A stretch of 11,271 nucleotides of DNA, taken from IMG/VR virus record IMGVR_UViG_2563366822_000010, positions 1-11,271 of that record; one strand, given 5' to 3'. The DNA is from a virus. Its lineage: Duplodnaviria > Heunggongvirae > Uroviricota > Caudoviricetes. The notes below the pieces were generated by a model. That model searched no databases and was not told where the DNA came from. It worked only from the letters and a program-made list of their open reading frames with translations. Of the stretch, positions 6,207 to 7,530 are shown one piece after another (within the stretch, counting starts at the first letter, position 1; the number at the start of each line of letters is the position of its first letter). A program made the translations under genes and the position numbers.

Positions 6207-7481
6207 TCAGCTGATACTGATGCCTGCGGTGGATTTCTTCATCACCACAACCAGCAAATCGCTGATACTTGCTGTGGGATACCAGTTATTCACCAGCCAT
6301 GCTGACACCGAAAACTCCAGTGTCATGTGACCGTGACCGGCAGGCATATCAATAACACCACTGTAAATCAGCGTATTATCCAGCGCGGTACGGTTATAAA
6401 TTTCAGCACCGTTTTTCCGCACTATCAGACGGCATGAGGAGTAAATATCAGTATGCTCTTTCTCATGTTTAGCGCCGCTGAATGCCACCGCCGGAATAAC
6501 AATCTGCCGGTCAAACGGCTGATCGTCATAAACCCTGACGGTAATGGTCCCTGATGGCCACCGCTCCGGTGCACGGGAGTCCCGGGGGAAAGCTTTGCCC
6601 ACTGTTTTAACGAGATCGCCTTCAATCTGGTTGGCGGACAGTTTTCCCAGAACCCGACAGTTTTCGTTAATCGTGACGTTGTTGAGCGTCCCGGAGTTCG
6701 CATTCACGTTACCGCTGATATCGGCATTTTTCGCCGTCAGCCGCCCGTCCGGTGTCAGGGAAAATGCCGGAGGATTACCGCCGCTGGTAATGGTGGGGGC
6801 CGTCAGGCGCTTCAGGAACACGTCGTTCATGAATATCTGGTTGCCCTGCGCCACAAACATCGGCGTTTCATTCCCGTTTGCCGGGTCAATAAACGCGATA
6901 CGGTTAGCGGCAACCAGGAACTGGCTCAGTTTGCCTTCCTCCGTATCCTCCATGCTGAGGCCAAGCCCCGCGACATAATGTTTGCCGTCTTTGGTCTGCT
7001 CAATTTTGACGCCCCACATGGCATTCCATTTATCGTTGGCGTCCTTCCACTCTTTCGAAAACTCCTCCAGTTTGCTGGCGTTATCTTCCGTCAGCTCAAA
7101 GTTTTCCAGCAGTTCCTTGCCGAGATGCGTTTTATTGATCAACCCTTTATAAAAATTCAGATAACCTTCCGCATCATCGCTCGCCCGACCAACGGCCTCC
7201 ACAAATGCCGATTTACCAACGGTGTTCACACTGCGAACGTAAAAATAATAATCATGGCCCGGTTTGATATTGATACTGGCGGCTATCCAGTACAGTGCCG
7301 TACCAAGATAACGCGCGCTGGTTTCAACCTGCCTGATATCCGCAATCCGTTTTTCCGAGAACCAGAACTCAAACTGTACCGTCGGGTCATAAACCGCAAG
7401 ATGCGGCGTGGCGGTTATCTGAAAATAGCCCGGCGTCAGCTCAATCCGTTCAGACGTGTGCTCTTCCGTCATAAACCGCAA
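6207..7481 (-). CDS. J: Tail tip protein J, C-terminal fragment (receptor-binding end), out of frame with the N-terminal fragment
   Basis: After 11 non-J codons (TTG-start [11 protein letters not shown]; in-frame ATG at 7470-7472) the translation repeats [21 protein letters not shown] and continues [75 protein letters not shown]..., matching the lambda J C-terminal half as I recall it. The two J fragments total about 1131 J-derived residues once the duplicated 21 residues are counted once. No Shine-Dalgarno precedes the internal start, so independent expression is unlikely. Confidence 0.85.
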
Positions 7482-7530
7482 GATGCGGCGTGGCGGTTAT
7501 CTGAAAATAGCCCGGCGTCAGCTCAATCCG
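7386..7530. repeat. Perfect 63-bp tandem direct repeat (7386-7448 and 7468-7530) separated by a 19-bp spacer (7449-7467) identical to the Illumina TruSeq adapter core
   Basis: Both copies read GTCATAAACCGCAAGATGCGGCGTGGCGGTTATCTGAAAATAGCCCGGCGTCAGCTCAATCCG. The spacer is TTCAGACGTGTGCTCTTCC on the plus strand, which is GGAAGAGCACACGTCTGAA on the minus strand. The repeat period is 82 bp, not a multiple of 3. Confidence 0.9.

Follow-up and report, generated by a model that had tools for sequence, protein, structure and literature searches.

The window, by which we mean the whole 11,271-nucleotide stretch of DNA analyzed here, comes from the 2013-era draft genome of Escherichia coli KTE142 (GCA_000351925.1), where it corresponds to the reverse strand of part of the 4.67-Mb scaffold KB732916.1. 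The assembly presumably belongs to the Broad Institute KTE series, which we take to have been built from Illumina reads with ALLPATHS-LG; a literature search returned nothing specific on strain KTE142 or its assembly method. The window covers the tail-gene arm of a prophage, with a cargo region at one end and a truncated K gene at the other, and it contains a J gene that is deposited as two separate proteins. The features needed for what follows are these:

1-552, plus strand: SLATT_5 two-transmembrane protein, 183 aa, overlapping the start of the reverse transcriptase
524-1900, plus strand: reverse transcriptase (RT), 456-458 aa (PADLOC RTasSLATT, 2.8e-57; RT_UG17, 8.4e-159)
6207-9684, minus strand: the whole J gene (tail tip/host specificity), 1131 codons once one 82-bp period is subtracted
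6207-7481, minus strand: C-terminal fragment of J, a 424-aa ORF from a TTG, GenBank ELF13110.1 "hypothetical protein A1YU_01457"
7386-7448, minus strand: copy 1 of a 63-bp unit, identical to 7468-7530
7449-7467, minus strand: adapter spacer of 19 nt, reading GGAAGAGCACACGTCTGAA on the coding strand
7468-7530, minus strand: copy 2 of the 63-bp unit, identical to 7386-7448
7450-9684, minus strand: N-terminal fragment of J, 744 aa, GenBank ELF13111.1 "phage tail component"
10702-11271, minus strand: 5'-truncated remnant of the K gene, cut by a gap of 1363 N and matched by the JAB profile only from position 66 of 114

Past tfa, at the cargo end of the prophage, lies the SLATT-RT pair, which on the strength of its profile matches is a candidate DRT-class anti-phage system. 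The identical RT protein occurs in 2348 index blocks and is accompanied by SLATT in all 10 loci among the matches listed. In eight of these 10 listed loci it lies beside lambda-like lom/J tail genes, which two loci (L254 and L255) have lost, and RT loci are found at a minimum of two chromosomal sites, one on the prfC side and one on the aspS side. In the assembly GCA_045572395.1 (locus L250, 16200-19695), gene calling divides the J gene beside the same pair into three pieces of 183, 638, and 276 aa. The tfa gene itself (2013-2597, minus strand) wholly contains a match to the Rfam family IS009 (RF02111; 2056-2254, minus strand) with a score of 225 bits, the gathering score being 117.

The two copies of the 63-bp unit within J are equal at 63 of 63 bases, with zero further matching bases beyond either edge. 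In the 22 kb of scaffold read, no other direct repeat of at least 30 nt has its copies within 1 kb. Copy 1 runs on into native downstream J, is contiguous with this native flank in lambda and three relatives, and encodes a 21-residue segment in the frame of the C-terminal J fragment. Copy 2 is joined to native upstream J, from which the coding strand passes straight into the adapter piece. As the inserted 82 bp equal 27 x 3 + 1, the reading frame is shifted by +1, and the same 21-residue segment is encoded both by the 744-aa ORF and by the 424-aa ORF. The final five residues of the 744-aa ORF (GRAHV) and its stop codon come from the adapter. The deposited ELF13110.1 has 421 aa, starting at the ATG at 7472, and its N-terminus reads M-TEEHTSE, residues 2-8 being translated across the adapter. 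Deletion of 7449-7530 yields one ORF of 1131 codons with the same stop. The initial annotation, which had described two identical 63-bp copies around a 19-bp spacer, a +1 shift that makes J appear as ORFs of 744 and 424 aa, and a real J that is intact at about 1131 codons, thus agrees with the repeat comparison and the ORF check, and the repaired J indeed shows the same linear order as lambda J and thousands of J genes from E. coli.

The repaired protein has 97% identity over 100% of its length to the 1131-aa cluster representative P0011, is colinear with lambda gpJ over the full length, has the domain set of J, and lies between the neighbors I and Lom. In precomputed Pfam matches this set is divided between the two pieces, with FNIII-A_GpJ, Phage-tail_3, and Ig_J in the N-terminal fragment and Ig_J_second, Phage_Tail_Tip, and Ig_GpJ_C in the C-terminal one. 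There are no stops elsewhere in either fragment. Among the neighbors, I, lom, stf, and tfa match their domains in full and are intact, as is K apart from the gap. Since the J fragments are otherwise open and the adjoining tail genes intact, the notion of a decaying prophage is argued against. The exact repaired J protein is absent among ~15 billion proteins, and the neighboring 930-aa tail fiber is known from the KTE142 assembly only. The two deposited fragments, ELF13111.1 and ELF13110.1, each occur on one contig only.

The spacer between the copies is part of a sequencing reagent. In the literature (PMC8722114), the Illumina read-1 adapter is listed as AGATCGGAAGAGCACACGTCTGAACTCCAGTCA, and the adapter string co-occurs with "TruSeq" in the text of 311 papers. 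The window matches it exactly over 21 nt (7448-7468, adapter positions 5-25) rather than 19, because one base on each side of the spacer also fits the adapter, these two bases being ambiguous in their assignment. None of 200 dinucleotide-preserving shuffles of the window matched the adapter, even at 3 mismatches. By our estimate, a 21-nt exact match to a 34-nt oligonucleotide is expected by chance at ~1e-7 in an 11-kb window, and such a match to a synthetic oligonucleotide at ~3e-5 per 5-Mb genome. The initial annotation had named the TruSeq read-1 adapter and did not expect such a match by chance in native DNA. With the string documented in PMC8722114, both statements are borne out by the exact match and the shuffles; the converse outcome considered at that time, a spacer matching no adapter at all, is contradicted by the match to the documented read-1 adapter.

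Among 5,426 complete E. coli genomes, the adapter 34-mer is present in only three, where the match covers nearly the full adapter and lies in unannotated sequence in every case; the 19-mer is thus not native E. coli DNA. These instances lie in "complete" RefSeq chromosomes (NZ_AP046542.1, 2224712-2224745; NZ_AP040990.1, 4842174-4842206; NZ_AP040927.1, 902451-902484), and the full or near-full 34-nt read-1 adapter in these three finished sequences is probably contamination. With its 19-21 nt, the KTE142 piece probably falls below the length that adapter screening of submitted assemblies would catch.

The native form of the locus is well represented in relatives. When a 521-bp query across the site was compared with complete E. 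coli genomes and phage records, every match listed was in two pieces and spanned ~439 bp (521 - 82). When the whole gene was compared with 4,699 E. coli records, every match listed spanned 3396 nt (3478 - 82). The closest J gene in a complete genome, that of strain 100416, is intact at 3396 nt. Alignment to lambda, two complete E. coli genomes, and phage 569R4 opens one clean 82-nt gap whose flanks continue base for base. A query restricted to the junction found no true junction in the 5,426 complete E. coli genomes or in 50,697 phage records, and the exact 38-nt junction is absent from viral contigs and species-representative genomes. The spacer thus combines a match to a synthetic oligonucleotide that exceeds chance with absence from independent genomes that have the same locus. 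A set of 146 records that covered at least 80% of the junction query proved to be spurious, being composed of two non-colinear pieces that both fall on a single native copy, at 94.4% identity and with a 73-nt span.

A fusion of two different prophages was considered and ruled out, as both halves of J have their best match in one and the same gene, the J of strain 100416 (98.6% and 98.3% identity), with one 63-nt segment between them in that strain. That segment is a diverged allelic patch with ~15 differences, the limits of which fall within a few bases of those of the unit (locus L246, about 10180-10250). Another prophage (L252) has the KTE142 unit exactly, and once. Further, the first and the last base of the unit each vary in an alignment of four relatives. 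Hence, the patch limits in strain 100416 and the polymorphic terminal bases place the 63-bp unit on a natural mosaic patch, which indicates that a short segment where an Ig/FN3-like domain of J begins is a putative recombination mosaic. An assembly graph containing several J paralogues would probably branch at both edges of the unit.

At the protein level, no tandem second copy of the 21-aa segment was seen in 150 J homologues and fragments inspected. Seven of the 150 hold two copies, and these are long two-allele chimeras in which the copies lie 58-555 residues apart. Among the homologues P0001-P0013, P0024, and P0092 of the repaired J, several deposited proteins of 1153-1882 aa, each with a single member sequence, follow one allele at ~96% identity and then step 100-550 residues back into another at ~70-83%. 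In P0001, residues 742-990 are present three times, and the protein is labeled as coming from Bacillus thuringiensis Sbt003 though it is an E. coli-type lambda J. These long two-allele proteins look like in-frame misassemblies or contamination, though some could also be real recombinants.

The scaffold around the window has further defects. Directly beyond position 11271 of the window, between L and K, lies the gap of 1363 N (scaffold locus 7051-8413), and 3 kb further another of 740 N interrupts the tape-measure gene (scaffold locus 4992-5731). In strain 100416, the closest complete relative, K has 247 codons and starts 5 nt after L, and the tape measure has 853 codons; of these, 189 codons of K and 698 + 94 of the tape measure are present in KTE142. 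What is truly missing relative to strain 100416 is therefore ~58 codons (~175 nt) at the 1363 N and ~61 codons (~185 nt) at the 740 N. Both gap sizes are thus strongly overestimated, which points to a badly resolved prophage arm. This is unsurprising given that J-like sequence occurs at a median of three places per E. coli genome. Of the marks of a misjoin, the site has a repetitive and ambiguous locus (multi-copy J with a mosaic patch) and, within 7 kb, other assembly defects (the two oversized N gaps). The unit-adapter-unit join itself contains no Ns, though other joins of the same scaffold are N gaps, and the flanks of the N gaps in KB732916.1 were checked for duplicated ends, with none found.

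Ordinary adapter contamination was surveyed in two sets of matches listed, comprising at least 123 occurrences of the 19-mer in viral contigs and at least 122 in species-representative genomes, the latter preselected for a non-canonical base two positions upstream. In the viral contigs, 122 of the 123 listed occurrences start at adapter base 1 (AGATCGG...), and not one lacks the first 4-5 bases (AGAT/AGATC). In 121 of the 123, the adapter points outward and a locus end is no more than ~210 nt away. Internal cases in the species-representative set are adapter tails beside N gaps or pieces that reach to about position 34. No flanking direct repeat accompanies any of the ~245 adapter occurrences listed, a sample with few assemblies that are likely to share the KTE142 pipeline, so that the unit-adapter-unit structure may still be a recurrent signature of that pipeline. 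Contig-terminal tails often end at adapter positions 24-28, which is also the outer limit of the KTE142 piece. Because that piece lies within the scaffold and its first base is adapter position 5/6, it does not conform to a simple adapter tail, adapter-derived though it is. Its truncated start, internal position, and flanking repeat, a combination without counterpart among the ~245 listed ordinary occurrences, together argue against plain adapter read-through.

Taken together, the sequence comparisons make it very likely that the 82-bp insertion is not part of the KTE142 genome and arose when the Illumina draft assembly was built; it is almost certainly an error of the database record rather than a biological feature. 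The view of the initial annotation that the split of J is an artefact is accordingly supported by the adapter spacer, the intact repaired J, the absence of the junction from the other records in the collections searched, and a gapped draft with mis-sized gaps. Its phrase "chimeric-read or misassembly" calls for a refinement, in that two overlapping contig ends joined together match the data better than one chimeric read. No independent assembly of the strain or of this prophage allele is on record, read-run assemblies included.

As to how the structure came about, we propose that the assembly graph would have branched at both edges of the 63-bp unit in the multi-copy, mosaic J. The contig with the 5' part of J would have ended in the unit followed by a short outward-pointing adapter tail, and the next contig would have begun with the same 63-bp unit. 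The adapter tail may have hidden this 63-bp overlap of the ends, so that the contigs were concatenated or "patched" rather than merged. The outcome would be unit-adapter-unit, from which gene calling would then give two spurious proteins with adapter-encoded residues. The orientation fits this proposal, since the coding-strand 5' part of J (copy 2) enters the adapter as a contig end would, after which the same 63 bases restart. The absence of a second unit-adapter-unit example among the ~245 adapter occurrences listed makes the route inferred rather than demonstrated, and the route leaves unexplained the loss of the adapter's first 4-5 bases, the lack of Ns at the join, and the unduplicated flanks of the N gaps. 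We would give concatenation, as opposed to a chimeric library molecule, an even chance of being what happened. Two numerical relations, 63 = K - 1 for K = 64 and 82 + 19 = 101 (the probable read length), are best regarded as coincidences because they are tied to no documented assembler step.

The same artefact could, less probably, have begun in the library: a chimeric molecule or PCR template-switch product with the order unit, partial adapter, unit may have been sequenced and then followed by the assembler through the ambiguous multi-copy J, or the graph loop that it created may have been traversed once. Such a molecule would account for an adapter that is cut at both ends and joined base to base to genomic sequence on each side, and for the lack of Ns at the join; contig-end adapter tails without the AGATC start, which concatenation would call for, number zero among the 123 listed. 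However, it would have to unite two independent fragments in the same orientation and 63 nt apart, which is very unlikely at random, and a single aberrant molecule is normally outvoted by normal coverage. We therefore consider a library origin possible but rather unlikely.

Far less credible are the readings in which some of the inserted sequence is biological. Under one of these, the in-frame duplication of 63 bp (21 codons) at the start of the Ig/FN3-like domain of J, a mosaic spot, is real and only the 19-nt adapter filler is spurious. A duplication of 63 bp alone, being divisible by 3, would leave J open, the unit falls on a mosaic patch of the gene that is prone to recombination, and tandem repeats are known to confound short-read assemblers (Pilon paper); if true, the duplication would mean that a host-range determinant varies naturally in length. 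Yet no tandem 21-aa copy is present in the 150 J homologues and fragments, all DNA relatives listed have a single copy, and two independent events would have to hit the same nucleotide, while a unit shorter than the read length should simply have been read through. The copies being set apart by 19 nt of synthetic adapter, and both truncated products being found on one contig only, they do not qualify as a genuine tandem duplication, and we regard a real duplication as very improbable. Slightly less probable still, and the least probable of all, is that the whole 82-bp insertion is genuine and J a true pseudogene of a decaying prophage, with an adapter match that is coincidental or natural. Prophage genes do decay, as the J in three pieces in L250 may illustrate, and the deposited sequence is internally consistent; but a chance match at ~3e-5 per genome would have to have hit precisely the junction of the duplication, none of the 5,426 complete E. 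coli genomes has the string as native sequence, and neither half of J shows other decay, the adjoining tail genes being intact as well. We know of no mechanism by which a stretch duplicated in tandem would come to enclose 19 nt of foreign filler that equal the sequencing reagent of the sample.

An origin in the assembly leaves the insertion without biological significance, and its usefulness is in database curation. One intact host-specificity gene has been turned into two deposited proteins, ELF13111.1 and ELF13110.1, with GRAHV and MTEEHTSE supplied by a sequencing reagent, and both spurious proteins are now in nr and in clustered protein collections. Prophage intactness, pseudogene content, and J diversity would all be miscounted from such drafts. 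As adapter remnants can be internal, truncated, and flanked by repeats, screens for full-length or terminal adapter only will miss them.

Comparison with known systems places the gene and the artefact separately. The gene order K-I-J-lom-stf-tfa of phage lambda is common to the KTE142 prophage, and lambda J (gpJ) has 1132 codons against the 1131 of the repaired gene, with ~94% DNA identity around the site. Unlike lambda J, the KTE142 gene is split as deposited and its allele is a mosaic identical to no J on record. Also unlike lambda, which has no gene there, the KTE142 prophage has a 116-aa ORF between I and J (9751-10101, minus strand), which is annotated as 112 aa and has no Pfam match.

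The artefact, in turn, shares traits with two kinds of known assembly defect without conforming fully to either. Ordinary read-through tails involve the same oligonucleotide and, as in the KTE142 piece, point away from the attached genomic sequence, with several stopping at adapter positions 24/25. They typically (121 of 123 and 115 of 122 listed) start at adapter base 1, lie within ~200 nt of a contig end or beside an N gap, and lack a flanking repeat, whereas the KTE142 piece is missing the first 4-5 bases and is embedded in a scaffold of 4.67 Mb, between exact copies of a 63-bp unit. Unmerged overlaps and gap closures in short-read drafts provide the other parallel, as illustrated by the case in the Pilon paper of flank extensions that overlapped by 42 bp and were left unmerged at a gap. 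Here, as in KTE142, the same genomic stretch is present on both sides of the join. Such overlaps normally keep a run of Ns between the copies, a place taken in KTE142 by adapter sequence with no Ns.
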